NCBI GenBank assembly: GCA_965224325.1
Contig: CBDCYT010000008.1
Span: 5,455-69,454 of the forward strand
From: Dehalococcoidia bacterium
GTDB taxonomy: Bacteria; Chloroflexota; Dehalococcoidia; Lucifugimonadales; UBA3495
Reading direction: 5' to 3'
DNA: 64,000 nucleotides
Positions 324 through 18,109 of the stretch are shown here, one piece after another. Below the pieces are notes generated by a model. It was not told where the DNA came from and searched no databases. It saw only the letters and a program-made list of their open reading frames with translations. Numbering within the stretch: the first letter of the stretch is position 1; the number at the start of each line of letters is the position of its first letter. The position numbers were made by a program, and so were the translations under genes.

Positions 324-2019
324 CTTGTTGCTCCGCCAGGCTATCGCCGTAGCCTTCGAATGTCACTAACCTAGTGCTGATTTCTACCAGGGCATTGCCC
401 AAATCGATGCTTATGACGCCATTGGAAGTCTCAAGTTGTTTGAGCCAGAACCTAACGTCCGCCAATACCTTGGGATTGTAATGGTCGCTCATGAGGCGTG
501 TGACGACGCTGGCATGCTGATTACTGGGAAGTTGGTTTGACACTCCATCAAGTGTCACCACATAGGTGGGCTGAAGCGTTAAGGCCCATGATCCACCAAA
601 CTGGGTTACCGTGTAGTTGACCGCCTCATGTTCGCAGTATCCGACATTTAGTCTCTGAGGCCATCGGGCCACTCGTCGCTTGGTCTTACGCCCGGCCGTA
701 GTGGTGTAGTCTATGGACCGCGAGTTTTGCTTGTCGCAGCGGTAATATGCACGGTTTCTGTGACGGTCTACTCTCATTCCGGATTGGCTCATTCGTGACT
801 CAAGGGCTTTCTTCAACAGCTCTGCTGGGATGTTGTCGGTGGAAGCGTTTTGGTAAATGTCTTCAAGATTTCGATGTTCAACTGAACCGAGGTCGGCTAT
901 GGTTGAGAACGGAGAATTCGGATTGGTGAGATCTGTGAAGGTGAAGAGTTTCCCCTGTCGTAGGGCAAATGGCGGGAGGCGGAATATCCCGGTTAACGCT
1001 GCGCTTTCGCGTGCATGGGTGATTTTCGCGGTGGCGATATGTATGGTACTTGGGACTGACAGGAATTCGGTCGTGTTGCCCCAATAGATGGTTGGCCGCA
1101 GCGGCCGCGCCGTTTGAGTAGGCGTGTCTATTTCAAGGTGAGATATGCTGGCGATGGCGACGAAACGGTCATTGCTCGGTGGTATTTCAAATGTCGCGGC
1201 CGCACCCACTTCCATCAGTGACTTGAAAGCGTCCACGAGTCCAGATCCTGCCTTATCAACGTAGCCAAGCCCCCAGAATGCCTCAGCTAAGTTTGGGTTT
1301 CTATACGCCGTAAGATGGGTACCGATTTCCCCGCGGTGTATCCGGCTCAGGAATTCTTCTCCGACTGGCACTTTGGCTGGTCCTGTTAACTGGACCATCA
1401 GGGTCTCGTCGAGACCTCCGGGACTTTCTATTTTGACGAAATTCTTATCTATCCAAATTTTGACTGGTTCCCGTGTCTCGTAATCTCGGTGAACGAGCGC
1501 ATTCGCCAGCAGTTCCTTGAGAGCAATCGGTCCGTATGGCTGGACATATCTCGATTGAGCGCCTTTTACTCGAATTGGGCGGTTGATTTCCTCAAGCCGT
1601 TCGAATACGGTCTCGTAGATTTGGGTCACTGACCCATCTATCGCTGTTGGGGGGCGGTCTGGCGTGCCAATCTCCACCCAATGTCCAGGTGAGATGTCGC
1701 GGCTGTTTTCTGCGCACAGCAATACCGCGGCTTTACTGGGTTTAGTGGTTCCATCGGCGTCTTTGGTGAGAAGGCCGATGGCCATGAGTCGGCTGGTGTA
1801 CCAATCGTCATCGGGAGCGCCTGGGATATTGATGCCCATTCTTCGAGAATGTTCGATTGCAATACGTTGCAGAGCTGCTTTGTTTATGTTGGAAGGCTGT
1901 GTGGCATCGGCTGGCCGCATGTCGAATGTAAGTTCATCTGGTGTAAGTGTGCCTGTGGTTCCTGTTTCTGGTGCGATGCTACGAGTTAACTGTGTGGTGG
2001 AAGCGCAGAATTCTTCCAT
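301..2019 (-). CDS. Two-part protein: RecG-C-terminal/HATPase_c_4-like N-terminal half fused to an APAZ-like C-terminal half (candidate pAgo partner/effector)
   Basis: 572-aa ORF. The N-terminal half carries ALKELLANALVHRDYETREPVKIWIDKNFVKIESPGGL ... YRNPNLAEAFWGLGYVDKAGSGL, a HATPase_c_4-type signature, with no recognisable AlbA_2 head. The C-terminal ~270 aa show landmarks I associate with APAZ (PPFALRQGKLFTFTD; HEAVNYTVTQFGGSWALTLQPTYVVTLDG; NPKVLADVRFWLKQL). The start could be M1 (2019) or M34 (1920). Confidence 0.6.
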   Translation of the reverse strand: MEEFCASTTQLTRSIAPETGTTGTLTPDELTFDMRPADATQPSNINKAALQRIAIEHSRRMGINIPGAPDDDWYTSRLMAIGLLTKDADGTTKPSKAAVLLCAENSRDISPGHWVEIGTPDRPPTAIDGSVTQIYETVFERLEEINRPIRVKGAQSRYVQPYGPIALKELLANALVHRDYETREPVKIWIDKNFVKIESPGGLDETLMVQLTGPAKVPVGEEFLSRIHRGEIGTHLTAYRNPNLAEAFWGLGYVDKAGSGLVDAFKSLMEVGAAATFEIPPSNDRFVAIASISHLEIDTPTQTARPLRPTIYWGNTTEFLSVPSTIHIATAKITHARESAALTGIFRLPPFALRQGKLFTFTDLTNPNSPFSTIADLGSVEHRNLEDIYQNASTDNIPAELLKKALESRMSQSGMRVDRHRNRAYYRCDKQNSRSIDYTTTAGRKTKRRVARWPQRLNVGYCEHEAVNYTVTQFGGSWALTLQPTYVVTLDGVSNQLPSNQHASVVTRLMSDHYNPKVLADVRFWLKQLETSNGVISIDLGNALVEISTRLVTFEGYGDSLAEQQDDDLIEG

Positions 2020-4316
2020 AAACCCGTATGCACCAAGTTCAGATCCACGCCCTCGCCGATGATCCCCTCATTCCTAGTCTGTGTCGGACCCACCAGCTCC
2101 GGGGTCAGGTCCAGCCGGGAGTCGTCGGTGAAGTTGGCGACTAGGTCCTCTTTTGGTGGATCCTCCCGGTAACCTGCCACGCGCGGGAAAGTGATCTCCA
2201 GGTGGTCCCGCTCGGGCCGCACCGCCTTCACCTGCACCGTCTGCTTTGGCTTGCCCGGGCCGACAACAACCGGACGGGCGGTGAAGTCGAAGGGAATACC
2301 CAGCACGTCGGCGTACTCGACGTCGAACTTGTTGTCCTCGTTCAGTTCGTAGGACTGGCGCCGCAAGGCCCGGCCCACCACCTGCTCGCACAGGAGCTGT
2401 GTTCCGAAGGCACGCACGCCCAGGACGTGAGTCACGGTGCTGGCGTCCCACCCCTCGGTGAGCATGGACACCGACACCACGCACCGGATGTTCTGTCCCA
2501 ACCGCCCCTCCTTGCCGACCGTGTTCATTGCCTCGCGCAGGAGTTCCTGCTCCGATATCTTGTCGGCCTCCTCCCGATTGCCAGTGCGCTCCTGGCGTTC
2601 CCGGCGGAACCGTTCGATCAGGTCGGCAGCGGCGCGGCGGAAATCATCGCTGAGCTTTTCATCGGACTCCAACTGATGGCTGTCGATCAGCAGGGTGCGC
2701 GGAACAGAGTAGCGGTTGTTGTACTCATCGTAGTTTCGGAACAGCGCGAGTCTCCCGTTAACAACCGAGGTCGTGCCATCCTCGTTGGGGCGCTCGAACC
2801 CGGATATATAGTCGTAGACCAGCTTGGACGTGGCGGTGTTATTGCAGACGACGATGAAACAGGGTGGACACGGGGTGCCGTCGGCCTCCCACTCCTTGAA
2901 AGTCTTCTCGTAATGGCCGTATAGGGCCTCGAGGGCAGTCTGCAACGGCGTGGGAAGGTCCAGTGGGTCCAGGTCACCCGATCGGCCCCTTCCCGCGCGA
3001 GGCATGTCCCTGCGGATATGTTCCCACAGGTTGCGAAACACCGGCACGTCGGCTCCCGGGATGTTGTCCGCAACAGGAACCCTCGGAAGCTTGACGATGC
3101 CGCATTCGATGGCGTCCATCAGCGAGAAGTCGCTGGCGGTCCAAGGGAACAGGGTTCCCTCGGCGTACCCGGAGCCACGCAGGAAGAAGGGCGTGGCCGA
3201 CAGGTCCACCACTTGACGTACACCAAGTTTTCTCTTAGTCATTTCCAGCCCGGAGAGCCACACTCGGGCTTCCTCGGTGTTCTGGTCTGCTTCCCGCTTG
3301 TCCTCGCCAGTAAGAGGGCCCTCGTCATCTTCTCCGGGCTTTTGGCGATAGCAGTGGTGGCCCTCGTCGTTGAGGACCATGATATTCTTCAGGCCCATAA
3401 GCTCGGGCATCACCCGCTGCATCATCTGGCCTTCGGACTCAACGGTCTCTATGGGTTCGCCCGGACCTTGCAGCAGGTCCCGCCCGCCGCTGGATATCGA
3501 CAGTCGCTCCCTGGGGTGGAGGCCGTGATAGTTGGTGATGACTATCTTGGCCCGCTGCAGGTCGCCCAGCATATCGGTGGGTGCCAGTTCCCGGCTTGCG
3601 TAGTAGCTGTCGGGGTCGTTCGGCTGCAGCACCCGCAACCGGTCCCGGATGGTAATTCCGGGCGTGACCACCAGGAAGCCGCGCGTGAACCTTCGGCTGT
3701 TGGGATGTCGCACGGCGTTGATGGTCTGCCACGCGATGATCATGGCCATCACTGTGGTCTTGCCCGCTCCGGTGGCCAACTTGAGAGCGACCCGCAACAG
3801 TTCGGGGTTCGCCTCCAGGCTGGCGCTTTCCAGTCGCTGGAGTGCCATCCTCTCCCCCTGCCCGAGCCGCGGCGCAACTTCGGTGAGCCAGATCAGCGTC
3901 TCTACGGCTTCGACCTGGCAGAAGAAGGGACGGTAATGGTTGAACCTGTGGTGCCGCCAGTGCTGGAGCAGCAGGGCCGTCTCCGGCGTAACGCCCCAGT
4001 TGTGGGGATCTGGGATGGTTCTCCACTGGTCGACGTACCGGCGAGTCTCGTTGACAGCGGCAGTAACGTCGTACTGCTGCTCTACCGTGGAAAGACCCTG
4101 CCCCTCGTCGAAGACTAGTTGCTGCTGACGTCCTCCGCGGGCCCTGCCCCTCTGCCTCGGCTTGGGAATGGGCGTGATGAACTCAGCCCCACGGCGGCTC
4201 TCAATGATCTGCTGGGTCGGCTGCCCAGTCTCGTCCAGCTCCCAGTGTTTGTAGGGGTATTCGTACGGGGAGTTCAGTATCGGCCGGTCGTAGAACGGGT
4301 TCTCCATGTCTTGCAC
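1986..4316 (-). CDS. SF2 DEAD/DEAH-box helicase, type III restriction Res-subunit-like
   Basis: 776-aa ORF. It has Walker A LATGAGKTTVMA (about 3756..3776), DEGH box VLNDEGHHCY (about 3357..3368) and motif VI QVVGRALRR. The N-terminus NPFYDRPILNSPYEYPYKHWELDETGQPT is typical of Res-type helicase subunits. No intact methyltransferase gene lies next to it. Confidence 0.85.
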   Translation of the reverse strand: MQDMENPFYDRPILNSPYEYPYKHWELDETGQPTQQIIESRRGAEFITPIPKPRQRGRARGGRQQQLVFDEGQGLSTVEQQYDVTAAVNETRRYVDQWRTIPDPHNWGVTPETALLLQHWRHHRFNHYRPFFCQVEAVETLIWLTEVAPRLGQGERMALQRLESASLEANPELLRVALKLATGAGKTTVMAMIIAWQTINAVRHPNSRRFTRGFLVVTPGITIRDRLRVLQPNDPDSYYASRELAPTDMLGDLQRAKIVITNYHGLHPRERLSISSGGRDLLQGPGEPIETVESEGQMMQRVMPELMGLKNIMVLNDEGHHCYRQKPGEDDEGPLTGEDKREADQNTEEARVWLSGLEMTKRKLGVRQVVDLSATPFFLRGSGYAEGTLFPWTASDFSLMDAIECGIVKLPRVPVADNIPGADVPVFRNLWEHIRRDMPRAGRGRSGDLDPLDLPTPLQTALEALYGHYEKTFKEWEADGTPCPPCFIVVCNNTATSKLVYDYISGFERPNEDGTTSVVNGRLALFRNYDEYNNRYSVPRTLLIDSHQLESDEKLSDDFRRAAADLIERFRRERQERTGNREEADKISEQELLREAMNTVGKEGRLGQNIRCVVSVSMLTEGWDASTVTHVLGVRAFGTQLLCEQVVGRALRRQSYELNEDNKFDVEYADVLGIPFDFTARPVVVGPGKPKQTVQVKAVRPERDHLEITFPRVAGYREDPPKEDLVANFTDDSRLDLTPELVGPTQTRNEGIIGEGVDLNLVHTGLWKNSALPPHS

Positions 4317-4445
4317 CGCTGAGTTGATTGGGCGCCTGAGCCAGAACGCCGTGTGGTCAAATTGCCGACATTAAGTGTCGACTAACAGGCTTCGGCTCGT
4401 CAATCCTCATTCCCTATGCCGAGCCAGGCTCCGCAGCCGAGCCGT

Positions 4446-4802
4446 TTACGCAGTCTCTCTTAAGAGAGTTGCGTTTGCCCGTGCCACGCTTTTCACCCCC
4501 CGCAACCGCTGCGGGGCGAAGACGATATTCAGAGATCGCGGCCCTGGGCGGAGCTGCTTGGGCTGGCCCTTCGACACCTGCTTGGCGGCGAAGATGCCGA
4601 AATCGGGGTGGTCCGCGCCCTGCTGGGATAGCTGGCTGATGCAGAATACCTTGGGCTTCAGGGATCCGCCCACGGCGTTCAGCAGGTTGGTCAGCGGGGG
4701 ATAGTAGGACGTCTCGGCAGTGCCGACGCCTGAGGCCTTGATCTTCCGGAGGTCGTCGAAGTATTCCTCAACGGCCGCTACCAGTTTGTTGTTGTCGGGC
4801 AT
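4446..4802 (-). pseudogene. N-terminal fragment of a large type IIG/Eco57I-like N6-adenine methyltransferase-restriction protein
   Basis: 118-aa ORF. The first ~85 aa (GTAETSYYPPLTNLLNAVGG ... GADHPDFGIF) resemble the conserved N-terminus of such proteins as I remember it. The rest is non-protein-like and no methyltransferase motifs follow. Confidence 0.4.
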
Positions 4803-4888
4803 GTGTCCCCTGCGATCTTGTGTCCCGCGTCAGATTCGGGTGCTCACACCAGTCCCGTCCCGCCGCCGACGATGGGACTAAGTATTAA

Positions 4889-5398
4889 CCCGTATACTTC
4901 ATCGCGAAACAGGAATTGTTTGCTCACTTCATCACCCGAAACGTGTTGAAGGGAGTACACGTGTCCCCCTTCAATCGCTCCGGGTCGGCGCTGGGAGCGG
5001 TCCGTCTCTTGCTCCGCATGCTTGCCGAAGACAAGGCCGTGGTGGTTTTTCCAGAGGGGCATCGGAGTCCTGACCATACGCTGAAGGAAGGGATGGCGGG
5101 AGTAGTCTACTTGGCCCTAAAATCGCAAGCGCCCATACTGCCGGTGGGGCTGCACGGCACCGAGAAGATACGGGGCTGGCGAATGCCCTTCCCGCTGACC
5201 CGGTTCACCGCCAACATCGGTCAGCCTTTTACCCTACCGTTGATAGAGGGGCAGCCCAGCAGGGAAGTAATGCACAGCTTGCTAGCGATCATAATGGGCC
5301 GTATCGCGGAACTGCTGCCTGAAGGATACCGCGGGGTTTACTCCGGCCAAGCCGCGCCCGCCCCTCAAGGGGCCGGGGCAAATACGCTATCCTTCTAA
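4889..5398 (+). pseudogene. plsC: 5'-truncated PlsC-family 1-acyl-sn-glycerol-3-phosphate acyltransferase
   Basis: The frame is open from 4889, immediately after TAA 4886..4888, with no start codon. It reads PVYFIAKQELF...VVVFPEGHRSP...PILPVGLHG, the downstream acyltransferase blocks. The N-terminal HxxxxD block is absent. Confidence 0.7.
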
Positions 5399-5822
5399 AT
5401 CGGAGTCAGCCTGAATTATCCTCAAGCACGTGGACGCAAGAAGTTTGCCTTGAGATTGACCGAAATCATGACACCGTAATAGGCCGTGGGCATGGGTCGC
5501 GTCGCACTTCACGAAAAGACCCATTGCGGCGAGTCCGATGTAGGAACATATTCGCGCAGACCCATGGCGCGTCGAACTGATAAACCGGCGGACTAGGCAA
5601 ACTTAGGGGCCATCCAGGGCCGCCAGTGGCCTGATTTAGCTACAACAGCGGCTCCCAAAAACCGTGAGAGGCCACTGGCGGTTGCTGGAAGTTGCACACG
5701 TTGTGGGCAAAATGTGGGCGGGTGCTGCAAAACCTCGCTTGGAGCCCTAGCCGAACACGGCGCCTGCCCTGATCCGGTGAGCGCCGTGTCCACAAAAGGG
5801 CCAACAGAGTATTTCGCCGGCT

Positions 5823-6014
5823 TCAGTGATCTAATGGGTCATCGACCATCTGGGCGAACAGCACAGCCCGCGCCGCTGCAAGGGGACGCCGCGCCCACCA
5901 CAGGTGCAGCGTGCTGGGGTGCCCATGCCGGATGGACTTCTCTCGCGCTGACGCCGCGTTGATGGCGTCCAACGGGAGAGCAACCTCTATGAGCTTCTTG
6001 CGGATCGGATTCAT
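5823..6014 (-). pseudogene. N-terminal fragment of a DUF1156-type putative DNA methylase
   Basis: The 63-aa ORF reads [54 protein letters not shown], the hallmark DUF1156 N-terminus. The body of the normally much larger protein is missing. Confidence 0.75.
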
Positions 6015-6736
6015 TGTCTGTCCTGCTCGGGAGGTAACTTGAAGCCCTTTGGGTTCGCGTCAACCAGTTCAGTCACATGGCGAATATCGAAAGCGACGAC
6101 AAAACCCTGATTCTCTTTGAAGTAGGCTATGGGCTGATTATTAGCGCCGAGTAGGGGCCTTCCATTCGCGTCGACTACAGCTTCAACAATCGGGGTGGGG
6201 TAATTGGCTACGACACCCGCGACCCGGAGTTCATTACTTTGTTGACTGGTTGGCACGTACACTAACGGCCCTCCGCTGAACCCCTTGTTGTTGTGTCCAT
6301 CGACATAGATCCGCGAGGAGTCTCCAACAGTGATAGAACTGACTATGCCCGCCTTGACAAATGGTATGGGAAAGTCGCGGTTAATTTGTTCTCCTCCCCC
6401 GTCCCACCCAAATGGAAATCCTAGGAAATAGACTGGCTGGCCATAGGTTAGTCCAGCTGATGATGATTCAAACGGGTGTGAGGGCGCAAGACGAACAGGG
6501 CACGTCAAGACCGCCACATCAGTTTCGCCTGCACCAATGCCGACAACTTCAACAGAAGTGTTCTTCCATTGTCTTTCGTGAAAGATCAATACGCTATTTC
6601 CGGACGTGATGTTCTCAACGACATGCCGAGCTGTGACCAGGTACTGTTTATTGTCTCGGTCAATGGCAAATGCAGTACCGGTTGAATCGCCGAAGCGAAT
6701 ATGAAATGTACGCTGAATTACGTTAGTGGTGATCAC
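6011..6736 (-). CDS. Trypsin-like (chymotrypsin-fold, S1) serine peptidase
   Basis: The 241-aa ORF has a His (TARHVV), Asp (ETDVAVL) and Ser (GFSGGPL) triad in canonical order. Its GTG start overlaps the upstream stop (GTGA, 6733..6736). No obvious signal peptide is present. Confidence 0.75.
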
Positions 6737-7050
6737 GACGGTACCTCAGCACGAGCCAGCAACTCCGGCAGGTCGTAATTCACGCTGGTCACGCCAAAGT
6801 CTGGTTCACGACGAAATGGCTTGCGGATATAGTGGACACTATCGGTCCAACCATTCTGGAACTCGACTATAGCCAGGATGTAGTCGTCCGGCTTGTTGAG
6901 CGAGGTAAGCACCTCGTTCTTGGTGACTGTCACCGTTGTTGCGCCTTGAATTCTCCCTTTAACCGACATTCCCCAGATCGAACCACCTTTCCTGGATATA
7001 GCTCCCGCAGGGATGCTGCCAACTATAATCTCGCATTCCAAGGGCGTCAA
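6733..7050 (-). CDS. Restriction-endonuclease-fold (DUF3883-like) domain protein, probably the C-terminal remnant of a helicase-related defence protein
   Basis: The 105-aa ORF (TTG start) reads SVKGRIQGATTVTVTKNEVLTSLNKPDDYILAIVEF...VHYIRKPFRREPDFGVTSVNYDLPELLARAE. This matches the C-terminal nuclease-fold domain I recall from helicase-related proteins. The usual IEVKGR reads MSVKGR, and no helicase body lies upstream. Confidence 0.45.
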   Translation of the reverse strand: MTPLECEIIVGSIPAGAISRKGGSIWGMSVKGRIQGATTVTVTKNEVLTSLNKPDDYILAIVEFQNGWTDSVHYIRKPFRREPDFGVTSVNYDLPELLARAEVPS

Positions 7051-7214
7051 ATGCGTCCTGATTCGCTCAAATTCCTCCTTTCATGGACCAACCACCGTCC
7101 TGCCAAGCGTAAAATCTCCAAACCGCTTGTCTACGACCAAGTCTCTTCCTTGGGAAGCCCTTTTGCCCTGTACGACCCGGTAACCGTAATCAATCCCGAC
7201 GCTCCTAAAGTGGA

Positions 7215-8546
7215 CTAGCCAGGAGCCAGCCTAAGCCGGCCAATCCGTTCCAGTATCCCGCCTAGCATTTCCCGGTTCACGAGCACCTCAGCAAGCTGAA
7301 ACACCAGCCTTCTGGCATGGCGCACCAACCGCCCTCCAGTCTTGATCATCCTGGTTTGAAGGCTAGTCAGCGACCACTGTTTCATCTCCTCCGGCACGGC
7401 CAGCCTTCTCAAGAAGTTGCCCAGGTTGTAAGCCATTACGAACAGTCCCAGCCTCACCTGGTTGGCCACGAACTTGTGGCAGGACAACCTGGTCCAGTTC
7501 AGGGCGTACTTGCCTTCTTTGATCCATTGCTCCGCCGTGCCCCGGCCATTGTAAAAGCGGACTATCCCTATAGTTGGATAGGTCAGATTGGTGACTATGA
7601 AGCCCACTCTGGGAAACAGTTCTCCCTGGTGCCACTCCACCTTGGCCACCATTCTTCGGGATACATTCCAACTCTGGGCCTGGTAGACGAAGTCATGATA
7701 GGAGACGATGGGCTTCGGGGAAGGCCACTCCGTAGGCCGTACCAGCAAGTGCGCTATCTCCCGCTGCAACACCTGATTGGACCGCAGCCTGATGGCATAG
7801 CCGATGCTTCTCGCTTCCAGGTATTCGTATATCTCCGGCTTGGCAAAGGCGGCGTCAGCACGAAACAGCAGCCTGACTGCTGCTATCAAGTAACGCTCCA
7901 CCACCGGATCGAGGACTTCTTGCCAATCATCGGCACTGTGGACGTTGCCTGACCGTAGCTTCGCTGCTTCACAATCCCCGAACTGGTTGAACAGAAAGAG
8001 AGGGTGATAACAGACACACTCGAAGTGGCCGTTGTAGGCTGCTCCCTCCTGCTGGCCGTGCACTGGACTCTCGGAACTGTCCATATCCAGGATCACTCGC
8101 CGGTGTGGAGTATGAACCATGGCACCCTCCACCCATTGGGAATTCATCCGGGCCAGCCCCTTCAGGTTCTTCTCCTCGGTCAAGGTCTCCGTCTCAAACC
8201 GCCCCATCTCGCTGGTGCTGGCAGCCTTGCGTTCCGAGCCCTGCCATCCCACGACTACTCGCATGGCGGGGTCGTAGGCTAAACGGTCGGCATCGTTGGT
8301 GTCGTCGTAGCCAGCCAGGCGACTGAAGATAGACTGGCGCAGCAGAGGAACCAGGTGGTGGAGGATATTGCGACCAGTGCGGCGGTCCTGGAGGTAGTCC
8401 TCAGCGATTTCGGTAAGGCCCAAGGCATCATCAAACTCTCGAAAAGCAAGAAGACCAGCGTCTGAGGTGATGGTTGAGCCGTGGAATTCCAGGCGGATTT
8501 TGGGGTTGAATTGGAGCCGGAGAGGGGCCTTTTCGCCGTCACCCAT
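7215..8546 (-). CDS. IS1380-family DDE transposase
   Basis: The 443-aa ORF begins ...LRLQFNPKIRLEFHGSTITSDAGLLAFREFDDALGLTE...GYDDTNDADRLAYDPAMR, a typical IS1380-family N-terminus. I could not define the element ends. Confidence 0.85.
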   Translation of the reverse strand: MGDGEKAPLRLQFNPKIRLEFHGSTITSDAGLLAFREFDDALGLTEIAEDYLQDRRTGRNILHHLVPLLRQSIFSRLAGYDDTNDADRLAYDPAMRVVVGWQGSERKAASTSEMGRFETETLTEEKNLKGLARMNSQWVEGAMVHTPHRRVILDMDSSESPVHGQQEGAAYNGHFECVCYHPLFLFNQFGDCEAAKLRSGNVHSADDWQEVLDPVVERYLIAAVRLLFRADAAFAKPEIYEYLEARSIGYAIRLRSNQVLQREIAHLLVRPTEWPSPKPIVSYHDFVYQAQSWNVSRRMVAKVEWHQGELFPRVGFIVTNLTYPTIGIVRFYNGRGTAEQWIKEGKYALNWTRLSCHKFVANQVRLGLFVMAYNLGNFLRRLAVPEEMKQWSLTSLQTRMIKTGGRLVRHARRLVFQLAEVLVNREMLGGILERIGRLRLAPG

Positions 8547-8681
8547 GGGGTGCCTCCAGGATGCTTACGCTACCTATATAAAACTCGCCAGGCTATGGGG
8601 TAATTATAGCCATACCGACGGCCAACGTCTCACAAATGGACAATGGTTTAAAGAATGCCGACGATTTACTCAGAGGGATAT

Positions 8682-9593
8682 TCAGCCATATGGGAAATGT
8701 GGGATAAATTCGTCGAACCCTGCAATGGTGACCAGTGAGAAGTTATCGTCCAGTTTTTGGGCTAGTTCCTTCACCATAGGGGAAAGGGTTTCTTCGGCAG
8801 TGCCTTCCAAGATGCACCAGAATATTCCCTGGGGGAATTTCCTCGCATCTTGGGTTCGGTCAATGAGCAAGCTTCGCATGATGGAAGGTTCAGCACCTCG
8901 GTAGCCGACGACTATTAGAGGATGGTCACGAAGGAGGGGCAGTATCTGCAATGCCAAGTCTTTGTCCAGTTCCTGTACTTCTTCCTCCATGATCCGGTCC
9001 ATGTAGTGATCGGCTTTGCCATGCAGGTGAATCAGCTGCGGGTGCAATGGAGCCGTATTTATTCTGTGCTGTTCGCTTGGTTCCGAGATGGTTATCAGTG
9101 GGCCAGGGCCGAAGGCTGTTTGAAAACGGTCGTCGAAGTTGGGAGTGAGCAAGGTTCGGATGATGCGCTGTTTGACCAGCCGGACCAACTGGTGGTATCC
9201 GCTGCTCGGCTCGGAGACACTGTTGAGCACATGAAGCAGAAACTTCCGCCTTAGTTCTCTTGGCGAGTTGAGGAGGCGCATTGAGTGCTGGTAACGGTCT
9301 TCTACCGCCATGTTCTTTGAGAACCATGTTTGGGACTGGAGGAAGATCTGGACGTCGCTCTCCCGTATCCTTGGGTCATCCGTGTTCCAGCCTTTGTTCA
9401 TAGCGGTAGCCCAGCGTGCTGCCTGGGTGGCCATGTCGTGCGCCATAGGTACGCCTGAAGTTGCCGAGGCCCCTGCCCCGAACAGAATCACAGGGTCGGT
9501 TTCGGCTTCTTTGATTATGGCGGTTAAGTGTTCTGTGCTGATGCGCCGCATCTTGTTATCCTTTTCTGCAGGCGTGCTCGGATTTGTCGTCAT
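8682..9593 (-). CDS. SIR2-family (SIR2_2-type) protein, candidate NAD+-consuming defence effector
   Basis: The 303-aa ORF carries VILFGAGASATSGVPMA, LLTPNFDDRFQ and LIHLHGKADH, landmarks of the SIR2_2 family. Its ATG overlaps the stop of the upstream gene (ATGA at 9591..9595). Confidence 0.8.
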   Translation of the reverse strand: MTTNPSTPAEKDNKMRRISTEHLTAIIKEAETDPVILFGAGASATSGVPMAHDMATQAARWATAMNKGWNTDDPRIRESDVQIFLQSQTWFSKNMAVEDRYQHSMRLLNSPRELRRKFLLHVLNSVSEPSSGYHQLVRLVKQRIIRTLLTPNFDDRFQTAFGPGPLITISEPSEQHRINTAPLHPQLIHLHGKADHYMDRIMEEEVQELDKDLALQILPLLRDHPLIVVGYRGAEPSIMRSLLIDRTQDARKFPQGIFWCILEGTAEETLSPMVKELAQKLDDNFSLVTIAGFDEFIPHFPYG

Positions 9594-10024
9594 CAGGTTG
9601 CGCTCACCACCCTTCGCATATAGACCATCGGGTTTCCGTACGGCCCACCAGAAAGCGAATCAGGGCTACGGTGCTCGATCACTGGCCCTCTGCCCATTTT
9701 GCTGCGCCACGCTCCGTTGGGCATTTGAATAGTCGCGTGCTCCCAGGTACCTTGATCCTCGTAGAGGGCAATCTTTTGGTAGCCTGACTGGGAGGTGCCG
9801 TCGTCACATTCCTCGAATCCCAATCCGACAAAAACTTCCTGCAGGCTTTCAATTCGCTCTGACCTTGTCGCATAGGATGGCCAGTAGCGTCGGGGGGTAT
9901 GATCCCACCACTGGCTTGTATCCCCTGCGGCATACGCGATGCAGTTGTACAGGTCTGACGGCGGATCAATTACGGTAAACCCTTCGTTGCGAAGGTTGGG
10001 GAATGACACATTGAGCCATGTCAT
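9593..10024 (-). CDS. Small Cys/His protein, possibly papain/NlpC-P60-like fold; function unknown
   Basis: The ORF track gives 163 aa. The likely start is MTWLNV at 10024 (143 aa), 4 nt after the upstream stop. Conserved-looking blocks are LYNCIAYAAGDTSQWW and TWEHATIQMPNGAWRSKMGRGPVIEH. The fold assignment is a guess. Confidence 0.5.
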   Translation of the reverse strand: MTWLNVSFPNLRNEGFTVIDPPSDLYNCIAYAAGDTSQWWDHTPRRYWPSYATRSERIESLQEVFVGLGFEECDDGTSQSGYQKIALYEDQGTWEHATIQMPNGAWRSKMGRGPVIEHRSPDSLSGGPYGNPMVYMRRVVSAT

Positions 10025-10028
10025 CCAC

Positions 10029-13000
10029 CTAGATGGGGCCAAGGTCTTCGCCCCATTGCAGCCAAGAATTCTGCATCGCTGCAATGTTGCCGAAGTCGGC
10101 TGGCGATACCGGATCTTCTCCTGTTATCTGTTGTAGGGCTTCAAACCAGTGTCCTCCTTGGGAACGCATTCGCTCAAGAATGAGCGGTACTACCGGTCGG
10201 CCCAAGTCGATAATCTCCTGGTGAATCGGGTGTGCAATTGTACGGTCTGATCTGGACAAGAAGAAAGTTTCTCGTTCCCACTGGTCGGCCAGTTCTTCGA
10301 ATCTCTCCCGTTCGGCAGGTTCGATTTCCTCCAAATCGGCATACTGGTTGTAGCCAAGGCCGCGGACGTGGGGCTCGGTGTTGAGTAGTTCGCGCAAGTG
10401 CGCCAACTCGTCGGCATTCCAGCCCATGGCTTCAGCGACGGCTTCGTCCCACAGCCGGCGCACTTTGCACTCGCCGTCGCGGAACTGAGGGACTTCCATG
10501 TCCTTGGTGCGCTCCCAGCAGTCCGTCAGGGTTCGGCGTATGAGGTCGTCTTTGAAGTTAGGAATGCGGATATTGCCGGAGGCGGCTGGGTTGTATAGGG
10601 GAAACTCTAGTGTGCGTCCTGGATTTCTCATGAGTTGCAGTCGACCTGGCGTTGAGTTGATGAAAACGGCAGTTGCCTTGCTTTCTTCGGCCGTCAGGCC
10701 CGTGACGGGAATGAAGCCTATACCTACGTGCTTATGGTCGCTTGCCGTGGCGGTTAGACGCCCTGTGTTGTTGCGCTGGCCTTGTGTTATTAGCAGGTGG
10801 CCTGCTTTTTCCAGCATCCTTTTCGTTTCCGGGTGGATACCGCTGTTGAGTCTTATTTTCTCTTCATCCATTTGCTTGGGCACCCGATACTCGTCGGGCG
10901 TACTAGTGATGTTGGTCTGTCCCTTGGCTCCTTCTGATGCCAGCACAGGGAAACTTCCATCTGTCTCCATGTCGGTTGTCATAAAGGTGCCGTGCAGCGT
11001 TTGGTACGTCGAATGGATCGATACTTCGGGTATGTCCTTGATGGCGTGGAGGTATGGATCGTAGGCGAACCTTGCCGCTGCTTCCGCCAATTCTGGGGAG
11101 CGCCAGATTGCTGGTGTCCAATCTCCCGATTCGATGCTTTTTGCAGGCCAGTGAGATATTACACCCCAGCCATCTTCTATTTGGCCCTCGGGGCATGCCA
11201 GGAGCGCTCGGTGCATTTCGGTAACCTCGTTGTCGTCAAGGGGCATTCGATCTAGGCTGATGAACTTGGTGTCATGCTTGGTACCATCGTGTCGCTTGAC
11301 AATAATGATGCTTTCGTTGATGGTGGTGTTCTGGCTCATGTTTGTCTGTCTCGGTTGGTGGCAGGTGAGCACAGTGTGGATGTGGTAGCGCTGGGCGAGG
11401 ATGCGCCTCTTGTCCAGTGCGGACGGAGCACAAAGGGCTACTGTTGGATTGATCATCGTCAGGACACCTTCTGCGTCCGTTAGACATTTGTCCGCAAGGG
11501 TGGTGAACAAAGGTTCTAAGGCGTTCTTGTCAACAAAATCTTCAAGAGCATTGTCGTTGTGGATTAGCATCCGTTCCAGGACGTCCGCGCGAGACCGTAA
11601 CGCTTGCTGTGTTGTTTTGGAGAACTTTTCTCCCATCTTGGTGCGGTTGGTGAACGGTGGGTTCATGATGATGATGCGAGCGTCTTTGACCGCCTCCACC
11701 GCATCTTCCAGCTCGGCGTCATCGTGCTGGTTCCAAGCGATTTGGGTGCCGATTTTGTCGTCAGCCAACCCCAACTCGCCGTCCCTGGCGACAATTGCCT
11801 TCTGGCCCAGCAACTCAAGTGTGCCGGCCGATACCTTGGTGAGGTCGTCCGGCGTCGGGCCGTAGGGCATCAGGTGCAGGCCCATCTTCCGGTATTGGAT
11901 CTCTCGATTCCCAGCCGTGAGTTGCGACGCCGCTAGTTGCAGCGACATTGGGTTGATGTCCAGCCCTTTGATGGTTTCTTCGACTGCCAACTTTTGTAGT
12001 TGGGCGAGATCTAATTCATCGGCGCCTTGTTCCTGTGCCCGCCGCTTCATGTCAGCGAGCATTGCGGTCAGCAGAGTTCCGCTGCCGCAAGCCAAGTCAA
12101 CGGTCTTGTGATCTCGCCACACCTGCGGGTCGCTCCAGTCCATGTCGCCGCAGGCGTCCAACGTTAGGCGCGCGGCGATGGCCGCCGCCACTGGCCGCGT
12201 GAAATAGGCACCGTCACTGGCCTGGTTTCCCATGAATTCGTTGAATATAGGGCCGGCGTGGTCGGTGCCCATCTCGGCGTAAGTCGTCGCGATTTCTTGG
12301 GCTGCGGCAGCCACGTGGCGCAGCGCCTTTTCTAGGCCAGCTATCTTGCCGGTGTTCTCCGCGGCGTACACCGTTTCCAGGGCGGGTTCCAGCACTGCCA
12401 GGAAGTCATAGCGCATGATGCGCTCCCACTCCCGGCACAATCGCTTCACGACGTTTGCGTCGTTCTTGATTTCCGATAGATTGCTGATGGGCAGCCAGCT
12501 GCCGACGGCGATGCGCTGGTGAAGCATGGCAGCGTTCATCAGAAGCAGGGCGGCGACATTGCAACTGTCGTTGCGCTTGCCCTCGGCCAAGTTATCCATT
12601 TGAAAGTGGTTGTCCAGCGTGGACTGTAGGCCGTCCTCCCGTAGATGGCGGCCTGCCTCCAGCACGCAGTCCCGCAGAATGTTCAGGTCGCGCTCTACGT
12701 TGTTGCCTTTCAGGCCGGACTTGGTGAGCAGGTTCATCCTGATGGCCGTGGTGTTGTCATTGAGTCCGGTGAGCAGCAGCATTTGCAGCGCGCTGCGGTT
12801 GCTGCGTTCCATGGGATCCTTGGGCTTTCGCTTGCTGGTGTGTTCCACGCGCACGCCCTCGCCGTTGTTCACCATTCGGCGCGCCTTGTCTTTAGTTTCC
12901 CTGATGTCTATAGGACCGAGGGTTCCGTCCGGCTTTGCCTTTTCCCGGGGAGCCCGGTCAACTCGTGATTCAGTGCTGCCGTCAGCGTTCTGATGCGTGG

Positions 13001-15524
13001 TCAGCACTGTATAGATGTCGTTGGCGGTAATGGTATCCAGCGTTAATTTCTCCGGATGTTCCTCGGTTATTCGTTGCAGCAGGTCTGACGACCATCCCGG
13101 GACGCTGGTCTCGGTGATCGTAGGCGTCTCCGGCACCGGGGTTCCCGGCTGTTGCGTCTCGTATGCGCCCGGCGGTTCCAACGTGGCTACGGCCGATCTG
13201 GTTTCCTCGTCAACCGCGGGTACTTCTCTCACCCGCCCTTGTAGTTCGCTGAGGGGACGCAGTCCCACGTCCTGGGGGCGGGCCTTGTGCTCTACAACCT
13301 GTTCGGAGGTTTTCTGGGCCTCGCCTACGGGGCCCACGTGGTAGTGGTGGCGGATGTAACCGGATTCCTGGTTGGCCACGCTGACAGCAGTGGCTACAAC
13401 TTCCTCCGCGGGGGGAACGTAGAGTGTTATCAGTTCCGACAATCGGTCTTCAATGCGCTCGTCGTGGGCACGCAAGGCCAGCAGTATCTGGCCCAGTTCC
13501 TCCCAGCCGTCTTCTTTGCTGCTAGTTTGCAGCCACTCTTCTGGATCTGCTTGGGGCGGTATAACAATTGGGCAAATGATGTAGCCCACTTCTTTTCCTG
13601 GAGCGGTGCGCATGGCGCGCCCGACGGCTTGAATCACGTCAATTGGGCTCTTCCGTGGTTCAAGGAATGCTACGGCGCTCAGCGACGGAGAGTCGGTACC
13701 CTCGCCGAAGATGCCCACGTTCAGGATGCCGTGCGGGCGTTCACTGGTGGCCTGCGCTAGGTTGCCTTTGGCTTGATCGCGGCGCAAGATGTTAGAGGAT
13801 GCGTCCAGGTGTTCCAGTTCGTATTGGGCGGCGTGGCGGCCCGGGAGGTTATCGTCCAAGTATTTCTGAATCCATTCCCTGGCGGTGTCGGACTGGAGAT
13901 CCCTAGCCATGTTCTTGGACTTGTCCACCGTGTTCATAAAGGCGATGCAGGATTTAATCGCTACTTGTTTCTCTGCGTCATCGTCCTGCTGGGTGGCGTT
14001 GCCCATGGCTAGGGCGAAAGCTAGCCCCCGGATGTAGTGGTCGGAGGTGAGGGCCTGTCGCCCTTTACTTTGGGTGTTTTTGGCGAGTAGGTTGGCAGCT
14101 CGATAAGCATCAGGGTCGTTGACGCCGATGGCAATGATACGGTAGTCGGACAGCCAGCCATTGTTCACGGCGTCAATGTAGCTGCGTCGGTAGATTTCCA
14201 CGCCGAACACGGTTTCATCGTCCATGGACCGGACAATCCACTCATCGTTGTTGCGCTGGACTTTCTTCTGATCGTACACTTTGGGCGTGGCGGTTTGGTA
14301 TATGCGGTAGGTGGCGGGGAATGCGTCATTGTCGTGGCAGAGGGTAAAGTTCCGCAGGTTCGGATTCTTCCCGTTCTGCGCATTCTTGCGCAGGCCGGCG
14401 GTCCTGTGGGCTTCGTCGCCGACCATTACGCAGGCAGCGGTTCCCGTACTGCGGAGGGCTTCCGCGACGCGATGTGCGCTTTGGTAGGTGCCGAAGATAA
14501 CGCCAATGTCTTGGCGTTGTTGGGCCGCTTCGATCCATTCGCCGATTGCTTGGGCGTCGGTGGTGACTTGCCCCTTAATGGCGGACGCGCTGACGTTGCT
14601 GCCATCGGCGGTGGGGTTTTTGAGCGTATCGCGTTTTTCTTCGTTTTTGGGATCGTAGCCGGCCGTTTCGTCGGAGCAGACGGCCAGGGCGTTGATGCTG
14701 CCAATGGCGTGTTGCAGGTACTCGCGTCGAATTTGGGCGACCAAGGCGATGGATGGGCATAGTACGACGGACACGTCGCCGGCGGGCGTCAGTGCTTCGA
14801 CGATGCGTAGCGAGATGCGGGTTTTGCCTGTGCCGCAAGGGAGGATTATCTTGCCTCGGGCTTGGCCTACCGGCAGTCCTCCACTATCGCACTGGACGTG
14901 GTCCTGAAGAACGCGGACGGCGGCGGCGACGGCTTCGTCCTGCATACACTGCTTGGTTTGTCGTGCCGTCTCCGGCGCGTCTGGCTGGCAGTGCGGGCAA
15001 GGCTGTTCGTCTTGTCCGCTGCTTTGGCTCAGCAGGTCTGCGTGGATGTTTACGGGCTTGATAGGACGGTCAACGCCGGCCATGGAGAGGGCTTGCTCGG
15101 CCTGCGGGCTAAAGGGCGCCTCGCCGTTGGCGACCAGCCAGCGTTCCGCCCAGAATGGGTTGGACGAGGCGTTTGCAAAGGAGTCCAGTTCGCTTTTCTG
15201 GATTGCTACTGGTATGCCGTTCTCGAGCCGGCGGGACTTGCACTGGATAGCAATGTGTCGTCCGTCACTACGCCGCACGGCCACGACGTCGATGCCGATG
15301 TCCTGATTGGTGGAGCCGGGGAACGTAATTTCGCGGTCCGGCCATTCCGTCCAGGTCCAGCACTCGACTATGTCCCACTCCTTGATGTAGGGGCCGACGG
15401 CTGCGGTGAGGTTTTCCAGCCACTTGCCGCCCGACTGCTGGTCTCGCATTGATTCCAGCCTGTCGATGGCGTTTTCTATGATGACTCTTGCGTCGTCGTT
15501 TAGCATCGGTGCTCCCTCGGCCAA
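10029..15524 (-). CDS. Type ISP-like single-polypeptide restriction-modification enzyme (Mrr-type nuclease + SF2 helicase-like ATPase + gamma-class N6-adenine methyltransferase + C-terminal region)
   Basis: The 1831-aa ORF carries these motifs in order:
- PD-(D/E)xK: DIGIDVVAVRRSDGRHIAIQCK, aa ~75-96.
- Walker A: PCGTGKT, ~14820..14840.
- DEAH: GDEAHR, ~14406..14420.
- Motif VI: QAVGRAMR.
- GAYFTRP, an HsdM-like motif.
- SAM motif I: VDLACGSGT, ~12075..12101.
- NPPF: 11652..11663.
About 540 aa follow that could hold a target-recognition domain. Confidence 0.85.
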   Translation of the reverse strand: MAEGAPMLNDDARVIIENAIDRLESMRDQQSGGKWLENLTAAVGPYIKEWDIVECWTWTEWPDREITFPGSTNQDIGIDVVAVRRSDGRHIAIQCKSRRLENGIPVAIQKSELDSFANASSNPFWAERWLVANGEAPFSPQAEQALSMAGVDRPIKPVNIHADLLSQSSGQDEQPCPHCQPDAPETARQTKQCMQDEAVAAAVRVLQDHVQCDSGGLPVGQARGKIILPCGTGKTRISLRIVEALTPAGDVSVVLCPSIALVAQIRREYLQHAIGSINALAVCSDETAGYDPKNEEKRDTLKNPTADGSNVSASAIKGQVTTDAQAIGEWIEAAQQRQDIGVIFGTYQSAHRVAEALRSTGTAACVMVGDEAHRTAGLRKNAQNGKNPNLRNFTLCHDNDAFPATYRIYQTATPKVYDQKKVQRNNDEWIVRSMDDETVFGVEIYRRSYIDAVNNGWLSDYRIIAIGVNDPDAYRAANLLAKNTQSKGRQALTSDHYIRGLAFALAMGNATQQDDDAEKQVAIKSCIAFMNTVDKSKNMARDLQSDTAREWIQKYLDDNLPGRHAAQYELEHLDASSNILRRDQAKGNLAQATSERPHGILNVGIFGEGTDSPSLSAVAFLEPRKSPIDVIQAVGRAMRTAPGKEVGYIICPIVIPPQADPEEWLQTSSKEDGWEELGQILLALRAHDERIEDRLSELITLYVPPAEEVVATAVSVANQESGYIRHHYHVGPVGEAQKTSEQVVEHKARPQDVGLRPLSELQGRVREVPAVDEETRSAVATLEPPGAYETQQPGTPVPETPTITETSVPGWSSDLLQRITEEHPEKLTLDTITANDIYTVLTTHQNADGSTESRVDRAPREKAKPDGTLGPIDIRETKDKARRMVNNGEGVRVEHTSKRKPKDPMERSNRSALQMLLLTGLNDNTTAIRMNLLTKSGLKGNNVERDLNILRDCVLEAGRHLREDGLQSTLDNHFQMDNLAEGKRNDSCNVAALLLMNAAMLHQRIAVGSWLPISNLSEIKNDANVVKRLCREWERIMRYDFLAVLEPALETVYAAENTGKIAGLEKALRHVAAAAQEIATTYAEMGTDHAGPIFNEFMGNQASDGAYFTRPVAAAIAARLTLDACGDMDWSDPQVWRDHKTVDLACGSGTLLTAMLADMKRRAQEQGADELDLAQLQKLAVEETIKGLDINPMSLQLAASQLTAGNREIQYRKMGLHLMPYGPTPDDLTKVSAGTLELLGQKAIVARDGELGLADDKIGTQIAWNQHDDAELEDAVEAVKDARIIIMNPPFTNRTKMGEKFSKTTQQALRSRADVLERMLIHNDNALEDFVDKNALEPLFTTLADKCLTDAEGVLTMINPTVALCAPSALDKRRILAQRYHIHTVLTCHQPRQTNMSQNTTINESIIIVKRHDGTKHDTKFISLDRMPLDDNEVTEMHRALLACPEGQIEDGWGVISHWPAKSIESGDWTPAIWRSPELAEAAARFAYDPYLHAIKDIPEVSIHSTYQTLHGTFMTTDMETDGSFPVLASEGAKGQTNITSTPDEYRVPKQMDEEKIRLNSGIHPETKRMLEKAGHLLITQGQRNNTGRLTATASDHKHVGIGFIPVTGLTAEESKATAVFINSTPGRLQLMRNPGRTLEFPLYNPAASGNIRIPNFKDDLIRRTLTDCWERTKDMEVPQFRDGECKVRRLWDEAVAEAMGWNADELAHLRELLNTEPHVRGLGYNQYADLEEIEPAERERFEELADQWERETFFLSRSDRTIAHPIHQEIIDLGRPVVPLILERMRSQGGHWFEALQQITGEDPVSPADFGNIAAMQNSWLQWGEDLGPI

Positions 15525-16104: not shown

Positions 16105-16159
16105 GGTGCGGATTATACCCCGTTCCCCGTCCATTGGTCTGCTTAATCGGTAGTTGCCG

Positions 16160-18001: not shown

Positions 18002-18109
18002 ACAGTACGGCCGAACGTGACCACTCTGCCCGCCTACGGCTACCGCCGAGGCAGGCAGAGGCGGCCGGGGATTGCGCAGGAGCTCCCGTCGGTCCACCAT
18101 GGAGGCGCC

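Follow-up and report, generated by a model that had tools for sequence, protein, structure and literature searches.

The window, a 64,000-nucleotide stretch of genomic DNA, carries on its minus strand three consecutive open reading frames (ORFs), a giant restriction-modification (RM) ORF, a gene for a small Cys/His protein and a SIR2 ORF, all found where the first-pass annotation had placed them. The giant ORF (10029..15524) codes for the annotated 1831 amino acids if counted from a TTG codon, but homologous sequences suggest that the true start may be Met7 at 15506. Its stop codon TAG (10031-10029) is followed by GTGG and then, at 10024, by the ATG of the 143-amino-acid Cys/His protein, in agreement with the 4-nt gap described previously. 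The stop codon of the latter, TGA (9595-9593), shares a single base with the ATG of the SIR2 ORF (9593-9591). The reported overlap thus exists, yet it comprises one base within TGATG rather than the four of an ATGA.

The giant ORF aligns over its entire length with homologues, as single full-length tblastn HSPs with 55-62% identity at 37 genome loci. Its N-terminal part comprises an Mrr-like PD-(D/E)xK nuclease domain (15060..15371, residues 52-155; Pfam Mrr_cat_2, E 1.5e-13), where D79 and Q94-C95-K96 are invariant in the homologue alignment, and an SF2 translocase (13410..14945, residues 194-705; Pfam ResIII 194-415, Helicase_C 567-640) with the motifs GTGKT, DEAH and QAVGRAMR. Across residues 70-704 there are matches to LlaBIII (4XQK, E 1e-52) and LlaGI (5FFJ), both Type ISP enzymes, the Mrr nuclease region falling within the LlaBIII match, and residues 10-722 align with canonical Type ISP fusions (hhalign E 1.6e-86). 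A linker follows (12243..13409, residues 706-1094), which consists of a poorly conserved Pro/Thr/Glu-rich stretch and a helical region. The linker yields no Pfam match, that to ISP_coupler included, whereas this domain is detected in L068.

The second half of the giant contains a gamma-class N6-adenine DNA methyltransferase (11505..12242, residues 1095-1340), identified by motif I (DLACGSGTL, residues 1143-1151) and motif IV (NPPF, residues 1288-1291), both invariant in 14 homologues, as well as by Foldseek and by weak Pfam matches at residues 1095-1336. An AlphaFold2 (AF2) model of residues 1000-1831 has low pLDDT over the modelled portion of the linker (1000-1094), and its Foldseek matches are gamma-class N6-adenine methyltransferases with a target recognition domain (TRD), foremost CamA (E 1e-12, about 660 columns), followed by BpuSI, BrxX/PglX, M.BseCI, MmeI and M.TaqI. 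The alignments with CamA and M.BseCI reach into a well-predicted, TRD-like region (10320..11504, residues 1341-1735), where Pfam did not find Type_ISP_C and the hhalign comparison with the Type ISP TRD was negative. The domain order proposed earlier, Mrr nuclease, SF2 ATPase and gamma-class methyltransferase with NPPF, is therefore supported by Pfam, LlaBIII/LlaGI and Foldseek, and judged by its sequence the giant is a single-chain RM enzyme, Type ISP-like but divergent.

The 143-amino-acid protein (9593..10024, minus strand) belongs to the family DUF7689 (Pfam PF24738, E 5e-34). It is very highly conserved, with 55-91% identity across phyla, and a Cys-His-His triad is invariant over 30 diverse members. 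In the AF2 model (pLDDT 89.6) the invariant Cys lies at the N-terminus of a helix; this putative active-site residue is Cys28 if the ATG at 10024 is taken as the start (C29 in alignment numbering). The top Foldseek matches are weak (E 0.02-0.1, TM about 0.35), all of them NlpC/P60 peptidases, and an NlpC/P60-like papain fold is predicted accordingly.

The last 95 or so residues of the giant (10032..10319, minus strand; residues ~1736-1831) form a helical C-terminal domain (CTD), which hhalign aligns with the C-termini of otherwise dissimilar proteins (E 7e-28, 42% identity). The CTD is the obligate upstream partner of DUF7689: its coding sequence lies immediately upstream of the DUF7689 gene at 74 of 80 genome loci and at 76 of 80 distant metagenome loci, and the loci where this adjacency is missing are mostly located at contig edges. 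The CTD and DUF7689 thus constitute a conserved, portable two-gene module, and in one database protein (P0294) both are joined in a single chain. The claimed coupling of the giant to the Cys/His protein likewise recurs, with identical stop-to-start geometry, in dozens of genomes. Within the giant family the CTD is optional, as 63 of 120 matches stop short of it, and locus L083, where the giant has no CTD, is also devoid of DUF7689.

Usually, the CTD occurs as a free-standing small protein. Carriers of less than 300 amino acids, defined here as free-standing, account for 22 of the 74 DUF7689-adjacent carriers in the genome set, and the median carrier of the metagenome set comprises 153 amino acids. 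Fused carriers, where annotated, are always DNA methyltransferases, RM enzymes or helicases, and six or more architectures from independent lineages are represented among them: the giant of the window type, canonical Type ISP, MTase-Type_ISP_C, N6_Mtase-Methylase_S, N6_Mtase/Eco57I and a DEAD-MZB helicase. Some free-standing CTD-DUF7689 copies adjoin unrelated genes, for example those for ribonucleotide reductase, a sulfatase or transposases. One CTD protein harbours an IS1595-type zinc ribbon, and another has an N-terminus that, judged by eye, resembles RHH.

The SIR2 ORF (8682..9593, minus strand; 303 amino acids) was correctly assigned to the SIR2_2 family (Pfam E 3e-7) and retains the invariant residues Asn152 (TPNFD) and His191 (HLHG). 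It is the front third of a SIR2-APAZ gene of about 870 codons, which belongs to a SPARSA operon and is split by a transposon. The ORF matches positions 4-282 of the PADLOC model PDLC02402 (Aga_SIR2-PNTD1-PNTD2, 876 positions; E 5e-94), and the 3' two-thirds of the gene lie at 301..2022 on the same strand, where an ORF of 572 amino acids (301-2019) begins at a native internal Met and matches positions 302-815 (E 2e-103). The gene also contains a weak HATPase_c_4-like stretch. Downstream follows the start of a short pAgo gene (1..323, minus strand), which leaves the window and was detected by tblastn with the pAgo of locus L002 (48.6% identity over 105 amino acids, E 3e-30). The latter protein corresponds to PADLOC pAgo_I (E 4e-134) and follows a homologous SIR2-APAZ gene. 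In the close relative L001 the SIR2 and 3' parts are contiguous and uninterrupted, and a full pAgo is found at the equivalent place (E 2e-178). SPARSA systems combine a short pAgo with SIR2-APAZ and confer abortive infection through NAD+ depletion (PMC9097488, PMC10781750, PMC10474274).

The two parts of the gene are separated by a block of 6,681 bp (2023..8703, minus strand), flanked by a 5-bp direct repeat, TTTAT, at 8704-8708 and 2018-2022. Starting at one end, the block comprises an IS1380-family transposase (7215-8546; Pfam DDE_Tnp_1_4, E 4e-131), a C-terminal fragment of HmaA (6733-7050), a trypsin-like gene (6011-6736), an N-terminal fragment of HmaB/DUF1156 (5823-6014) and, at the far end, a 3'-truncated ResIII helicase gene extending down to 2023. 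No clear IS1380 inverted repeats were found at the block. The junction, mapped against L001, shows that only 8704-9593 of the SIR2 ORF are native (the SIR2 domain, about 296 amino acids), while its final seven codons (IPHFPYG) and the stop derive from the block; the ORF is hence the truncated remnant that the first-pass annotation had considered as a possibility. Since the first gene is cut after about codon 296, the SPARSA operon is almost certainly inactive here. IS1380-family elements generate repeats of 4-5 bp, and one-ended transposition can carry along adjacent DNA (PMC12116815). A single transposition event is modelled on the basis of the 5-bp duplication and the comparison with one relative, L001, a contig of 2x coverage.

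We consider it likely that the locus comprises two separate defence systems, arranged head to tail in a defence island of a bacterium that is probably a marine sponge symbiont of the Dehalococcoidia/SAR202 type: a Type ISP-like RM enzyme with a CTD-DUF7689 module, and a SPARSA operon split by an IS1380 unit. By analogy with LlaGI and LlaBIII, the giant would methylate its own site on host DNA, translocate on unmodified DNA at the expense of ATP and cut upon collision of two enzymes. Collision cleavage is an analogy only, because the giant lacks ISP_coupler and Type_ISP_C, and its methyltransferase-TRD half shows no detectable homology to the corresponding half of LlaGI-type enzymes. The CTD would bind DUF7689, a putative Cys-His-His hydrolase, and restrain it as an antitoxin restrains a toxin. 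Where the CTD is fused to an RM enzyme, release of the hydrolase would depend on the fate of the enzyme, an arrangement that would act as an addiction device or as an abortive back-up. The first SPARSA gene, whose start codon overlaps the stop codon of DUF7689 by one base, has been interrupted by the 6.68-kb unit, and the 303-amino-acid SIR2 protein is its residual N-terminal fragment.

The role of the module might be a different one. A tentative alternative is that CTD-DUF7689 takes no part in restriction and acts as a selfish cassette of the toxin-antitoxin or addiction type, the fusion to RM enzymes merely stabilizing the RM genes or the cassette itself in mobile defence islands. The small size and tight coupling of the two genes, their free-standing occurrence in most loci, in part next to unrelated genes, and the CTD proteins with a zinc ribbon or RHH-like N-terminus are in line with this notion. 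However, all large carriers examined are DNA methyltransferases, RM enzymes or helicases, and their spread over so many architectures argues for a functional link. Rather improbable is a third option, according to which DUF7689 is not a toxin but a helper enzyme that docks via the CTD onto the RM or methyltransferase machinery, for instance a peptidase that clears anti-restriction proteins or processes the enzyme. The invariant catalytic-type triad, the sequence conservation across phyla and the nature of the fused carriers (helicases or MTase-TRD enzymes, some of them related to Ocr-sensitive classes) would suit such a helper, but the module most often occurs as a free-standing pair without a neighbouring RM gene, a setting in which a helper dedicated to RM would hardly be expected.

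The first-pass annotation had proposed that the giant, the Cys/His protein and SIR2 form one new system, a translocating RM enzyme coupled to an NAD+-depleting effector; despite the one-base overlap, the identical gene order in L001 and the intact catalytic Asn and His, this is very unlikely, as the SIR2 ORF is a piece of a known Argonaute defence gene with its own pAgo partner and therefore does not define a new restriction-SIR2 system, tblastn and HMM searches detected no SIR2, APAZ or pAgo near DUF7689 in any of 80 other genomes, and in L002 the same SPARSA type adjoins an unrelated Type I RM system. The adjacency of giant, DUF7689 and SIR2-APAZ is common only to the window and L001. Given this shared order and the overlap, co-transcription and some functional interplay of DUF7689 and SIR2-APAZ are possible in this lineage.

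Compared to known systems, the giant resembles Type ISP enzymes such as LlaGI and LlaBIII as a single chain of Mrr nuclease, SF2 ATPase, gamma-class methyltransferase and TRD, with clear homology in the nuclease-motor half. It differs by the missing ISP_coupler and Type_ISP_C domains, the additional CTD and the coupled DUF7689 gene, as well as by a methyltransferase-TRD half that has no detectable sequence or profile homology to Type ISP and, in the predicted structure, rather resembles CamA, Type IIG enzymes and BrxX. As in SPARSA, the SIR2 ORF and the ORF 301-2019 together match the PADLOC SIR2-APAZ model from one end to the other, and they precede a short pAgo. Yet the gene is interrupted here, and with about 870 amino acids its product exceeds the second SIR2-APAZ model of PADLOC in length (PDLC02419, 558 positions). 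The inserted block is reminiscent of ISEcp1/ISEc9-type units (PMC12116815) in having the transposase at one end, adjacent DNA carried along, a far end that lies at an arbitrary point within a gene and terminates in G, and a 5-bp target duplication. In contrast to these units, it has no recognizable inverted repeats and carries decayed defence genes instead of a resistance gene.

The CTD-DUF7689 module resembles toxin-antitoxin pairs in consisting of two tightly coupled small genes and in its wide, patchy distribution, often in mobile or defence regions. As in such pairs, the upstream product is helical without catalytic-looking residues and the downstream one enzyme-like with an invariant triad. 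Unlike typical antitoxins, however, the CTD recurs as a C-terminal fusion to large RM enzymes. The anticodon nuclease PrrC is kept latent by the Type Ic RM enzyme EcoprrI. While the proteins of the CTD-DUF7689 fusion are unrelated to the PrrC system, the hypothetical principle would be similar: an RM enzyme masks a latent effector, which is set free when the enzyme itself is attacked.

The three open reading frames (ORFs) that had been proposed to form one restriction and abortive-infection unit all lie on the minus strand, at the places where the first-pass annotation had put them. A giant Type ISP-like protein of 1831 aa, counted from a TTG, is encoded at positions 10029-15524. It is followed by a 143-aa Cys/His protein read from an ATG (9593-10024), which belongs to the Pfam family DUF7689 (E 5e-34), and by a 303-aa ORF at 8682-9593 with a match to SIR2_2 (E 3e-7). 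The next gene after the SIR2 ORF (7215-8546) codes for an IS1380-type transposase (DDE_Tnp_1_4, E 4e-131). The TAG stop codon of the giant (10031-10029) is succeeded by GTGG and then by the DUF7689 ATG at 10024, and the DUF7689 TGA (9595-9593) shares one base with the SIR2 ATG (9593-9591). The latter overlap exists as described, yet its sequence is TGATG and not ATGA. A promoter and terminator scan of the region 8500-16500 returned sites no more numerous than in shuffled sequence, and is therefore uninformative on the operon structure. Upstream of the giant, an SRAP peptidase fragment and an IS1595-family transposase (at 17804-18424 and 20607-21563) are further signs of a mobile-element-rich region.

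The SIR2 ORF had been taken for an independent gene and turns out to be a transposon-truncated fragment of a short-Argonaute (SPARSA) gene. Of the 876 positions of the PADLOC model Aga_SIR2-PNTD1-PNTD2 (PDLC02402), it covers 4-282 (E 5e-94), and a 572-aa ORF on the same strand, far downstream (301-2019), covers 302-815 (E 2e-103). In the metagenomic relative L001, the sequences corresponding to window positions 8704-9562 and 15-2022 are contiguous (75-79% nucleotide identity). Window positions 323-1 code for the first ~105 residues of a short pAgo (E 3e-30); a complete pAgo occupies the corresponding position in L001 (E 2e-178), and in a second relative, L002, the homologue of the interrupted gene (56% identical) precedes a pAgo_I protein (PADLOC, E 4e-134). 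These matches indicate that the interrupted SIR2-APAZ gene belongs to a SPARSA operon, which is disrupted in the window. SPARSA is a known NAD+-depleting system (PMC9097488, PMC10781750, PMC10474274). The catalytic residues on which a SIR2 effector would depend, Asn152 and His191, are present and intact, yet the insertion has severed the domain from APAZ and pAgo. The two parts of the interrupted gene (301-2019 and 8682-9593) remain open and undecayed, and hence the insertion seems recent. The start of the 3' half coincides exactly with an internal Met of the native gene, and the two halves could conceivably be expressed separately.

The interruption is caused by a block of 6,681 bp (2023-8703), which sits inside the SIR2-APAZ gene and is flanked by the 5-bp direct repeat TTTAT at both junctions. 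In a base-level alignment with L001 the left junction (8704/8703), read on the minus strand, is ...GACGAATTTAT/CCCACATTTCCC..., the slash marking the boundary. The right junction (2023/2022), aligned at base level and read on the same strand, is ...CATACGGG/TTTATGGAAG..., and the uninterrupted relative carries ...GACCAATTCATGGAGG... at this site. The final seven residues of the SIR2 ORF (IPHFPYG) are coded by the insert. The IS1380-family transposase comes first in the block and is followed by decayed defence genes. Of an HmaA-like helicase only the last ~80 residues are left; a trypsin-like gene follows, then the N-terminal 63 residues of an HmaB/DUF1156 methylase and a ResIII helicase gene, which loses its own 3' end at the junction. 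The cargo also includes an acyltransferase fragment on the opposite strand. Members of the IS1380 family generate duplications of 4-5 bp and can move adjacent DNA by one-ended transposition (PMC12116815), and the block resembles a unit mobilised by ISEcp1-style one-ended transposition. A comparison of position 8703 with ~7100 or 2023 yielded no convincing inverted repeats, and searches for further copies of the element in the window and the fetched loci, or for an identical transposase elsewhere, produced nothing usable.

The linkage of the three genes in other genomes was assessed with 80 loci, which were fetched from GTDB genomes with an alignment of DUF7689 homologues. These loci appear to stem mostly from MAGs of marine sponge symbionts and include Dehalococcoidia/SAR202, Latescibacterota, Entotheonella, Gemmatimonadota, Pseudomonadales, Ca. 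Synechococcus spongiarum, Caldilineaceae and Pirellulales. Neither tblastn nor an HMM search placed a counterpart of either part of the split gene, SIR2 or APAZ, within 10 kb in any of them (0/80), and the proposed co-occurrence of the three genes does not hold. Nor did the 80 loci reveal a conserved third gene downstream of DUF7689, the biggest cluster comprising 10 loci and not corresponding to the transposase of the window. The linkage to SIR2 is an accident of position within a defence island, common only to one close relative. This relative, L001, is the only one that shares the giant-SPARSA adjacency, on a contig of 2x coverage. Its DUF7689 copy (3693-4160) is only ~34% identical to that of the window and is separated from the SIR2-APAZ start by an apparent gap of ~250 nt; both features may be explained by contig errors. 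The only SIR2 protein among the neighbours sampled, a 1270-aa SIR2_2-DUF4020 protein at L059 (4278-8090), belongs to a different family and lies ~1.3 kb upstream of a DUF7689 pair with a free-standing partner. At four loci (L035, L037, L038 and L051) a gene of ~360 aa recurs about 300-340 nt downstream of DUF7689; the L035 copy matches PADLOC PD-Lambda-2_B (E 1e-124) and has an M78/IrrE-like peptidase domain.

Had the coupling of a translocating restriction-modification (RM) enzyme to a SIR2 NADase held, it would have amounted to a defence system of a new type; the claim is an artefact, a transposon-truncated SPARSA gene having been mistaken for one that codes for a small SIR2 protein. What stands of the original interpretation is the part concerning the giant and the Cys/His protein, and the coupling of these two is a conserved pairing.

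The domain order of Type ISP enzymes, which had been ascribed to the giant, is borne out by Pfam domains, homology to LlaBIII and LlaGI, and structural matches to gamma-class methyltransferases. Pfam places an Mrr_cat_2 nuclease domain at aa 52-155 (E 1.5e-13), ResIII at aa 194-415, Helicase_C at aa 567-640 and, with weak matches, a methyltransferase at aa 1095-1336. In the homologue alignment D79 and QCK94-96 of the Mrr-like PD-(D/E)xK nuclease are invariant. The SF2 helicase-like ATPase is homologous to LlaGI and LlaBIII (phmmer against the PDB, E 1e-52 and 4e-52), with the LlaBIII alignment beginning at aa 70, and the nuclease-motor half of window-type giants aligns with that of canonical Type ISP enzymes bearing the same C-terminus (hhalign, E 1.6e-86, 31% identity). 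The methyltransferase has motif I ahead of NPPF, both invariant, and is of the gamma-class N6-adenine type. A PDB profile search with the C-terminal half gave a best match of only E 0.14; its structural model retrieved CamA as the best Foldseek match (E 1e-12), then BpuSI, BrxX/PglX, M.BseCI, MmeI and M.TaqI, all of which are gamma N6-adenine methyltransferases with a target recognition region (TRD). Between motor and methyltransferase no Pfam match to ISP_coupler was obtained in the giant at E<=0.01, whereas a canonical relative, L068, matches this domain with E 1.6e-42. The Type_ISP_C specificity domain likewise has no Pfam match in the giant and no hhalign similarity in that region; in the model, a TRD-like fold resembling CamA/M.BseCI stands in its place. 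The giant is therefore likened to Type ISP in its mode of action and not filed as a member, and it represents a putative divergent Type ISP-like RM enzyme. By analogy with Type ISP enzymes it would translocate along DNA at the expense of ATP, cleave upon collision and hemimethylate an asymmetric site. Database homologues of its C-terminal half begin at many internal positions (aa ~900-1400), and many come from long-read contigs of 2x coverage. They are probably frameshift or gene-calling fragments rather than true split genes, and since many have arbitrary start points, homologue lengths were not taken as evidence for split genes.

The giant-DUF7689 pair is real and conserved, and it would act through the last ~95 aa of the giant (aa ~1736-1831), here termed CTD. 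The gene directly upstream of DUF7689 ends in a homologue of the giant's last ~85-117 residues in 74 of the 80 GTDB loci. It is a full-length window-type giant in 37 loci (55-62% identity) and a free-standing protein of <300 aa in 22; in others the CTD is carried by a different large protein. At L068 the carrier is a canonical Type ISP enzyme in which ISP_coupler and Type_ISP_C are both present, at L003 an MTase-Type_ISP_C protein devoid of a motor, and at L071 a DEAD-Helicase_C-MZB helicase. Between the C-terminal halves of window-type giants and canonical Type ISP carriers the CTD alone aligns (hhalign, E 7e-28, 42% identity); it has thus been grafted onto different scaffolds. Conversely, many giants lack it: 63 of the 120 best database matches end at aa ~1730-1752, and a CTD-less giant at L083 has no DUF7689. 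The L083 giant is called as 1287 + 397 aa, with a weak DUF7121 protein in the place of DUF7689, and its island contains GmrSD, an Mrr-family enzyme and a Type I-E CRISPR-Cas locus.

The DUF7689 family comprises 3,600 representatives at 50% identity (E<=1e-3). A second set of 80 loci from varied metagenomes, holding distant members (35-49% identity), gave the same arrangement: a CTD HMM match ends directly upstream of DUF7689 in 76/80, three of the four exceptions are at contig edges, and in both sets the loci without an upstream CTD are mostly found there. Metagenome carriers are mostly small (median stop-to-stop ORF of 153 aa), and the only two large ones are both DNA methyltransferases (N6_Mtase/Eco57I and N6_Mtase+Methylase_S). 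In one database protein, P0294, CTD and DUF7689 form a single chain, an indirect hint that one partner might be toxic and be neutralised by binding of the other. Neither NCBIfam nor PADLOC contains a model for DUF7689 or the CTD, and Pfam has none for the CTD.

Window-type giants (55-62% identity) with DUF7689 (55-91%) occur across apparent sponge-symbiont MAGs of at least eight phyla (L003-L082), implying much horizontal exchange among members of the sponge microbiome. Two or three copies are present in some genomes, e.g., OZ253670, OY762251 and OZ241923. DUF7689 is also fused to other N-terminal regions in P0345 (393 aa) and P0306 (989 aa); one fusion partner is DUF4062/TIR-like by eye (RIFISSTHFDL...), and another is long, fn3-rich and apparently secreted. 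Among free-standing CTD proteins, one has an RHH-like N-terminal stretch by eye (L140, 85-552) and another an IS1595-type zinc ribbon (L096, 133-897; Pfam E 5e-13); such possible DNA-binding N-termini would fit autoregulated antitoxins.

The AF2 model of the DUF7689 protein (pLDDT 89.6) places Cys29 (alignment numbering; Cys28 from the ATG) at the N-terminus of helix 29-33, His97 in strand 94-101 and His119 in strand 116-119. None of the three residues varies, either within the close clade or among 30 diverse members of the family. The top 13 Foldseek matches are NlpC/P60 or CHAP-type peptidases, albeit weak (E 0.02-0.1, TM ~0.35), and the best PDB matches include Spr/MepS, CwlO and LytE. The CTD is helical in its model and conserved at Trp, Gly, Pro and Leu residues, a pattern that suits a binding domain better than an enzyme. 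In the reading that we prefer, the two proteins form an antitoxin-toxin-like pair, in which the CTD would bind and restrain DUF7689 as a Cys-His-His hydrolase; fusion of the CTD to RM-type enzymes would tie release of the hydrolase to the state of the enzyme. Both the pairing in this sense and the release step are what we infer. Alternatively, the two genes could represent a purely selfish toxin-antitoxin cassette, or DUF7689 could be a non-toxic helper peptidase. A more far-reaching reading regards the pair as an undescribed, widespread module of a helical partner and an NlpC/P60-like hydrolase, which may act as a guard where the partner is joined to the C-terminal end of an RM enzyme, methyltransferase or helicase: the RM enzyme would hold a latent toxic hydrolase and set it free upon its own inhibition, degradation or loss. 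We advance this tentatively and consider it rather improbable. If true, restriction would gain an abortive-infection or addiction arm, and the earlier idea of restriction plus an abortive arm would be kept, with DUF7689 as effector instead of SIR2. No paper mentions DUF7689, and none was found that links NlpC/P60-type proteins to RM systems.

What merits further work is the CTD-DUF7689 module, an uncharacterised, strictly conserved pair repeatedly grafted onto RM, methyltransferase and helicase C-termini. Should the pair turn out to be a guard, or a toxin-antitoxin module tethered to its carrier, restriction would be linked in a new way to a second line of defence, and DUF7689 would gain a function. 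Of interest as well is the divergent Type ISP-like branch, spread over the sponge symbionts at the identities given.

Three parts of the region are of known kinds: SPARSA, the Type ISP-like RM enzyme and the IS1380 transposition unit. Like SPARSA, the ancestral window gene combined SIR2 and APAZ in one protein with a short pAgo (MID-PIWI) gene directly downstream; the intact operon is absent from the window, where the insertion parts SIR2 from APAZ. The inserted block agrees with IS1380 transposition units in its DDE transposase and TTTAT target duplication. The giant shares with Type ISP enzymes an Mrr-like nuclease, a homologous SF2 motor and a gamma N6-adenine methyltransferase with NPPF in one chain, but lacks both ISP_coupler and Type_ISP_C. 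Neither the CTD-DUF7689 module nor the recurrent joining of its CTD to RM enzymes appears to have been described previously; with toxin-antitoxin modules the pair has in common the conserved arrangement of two adjacent genes.
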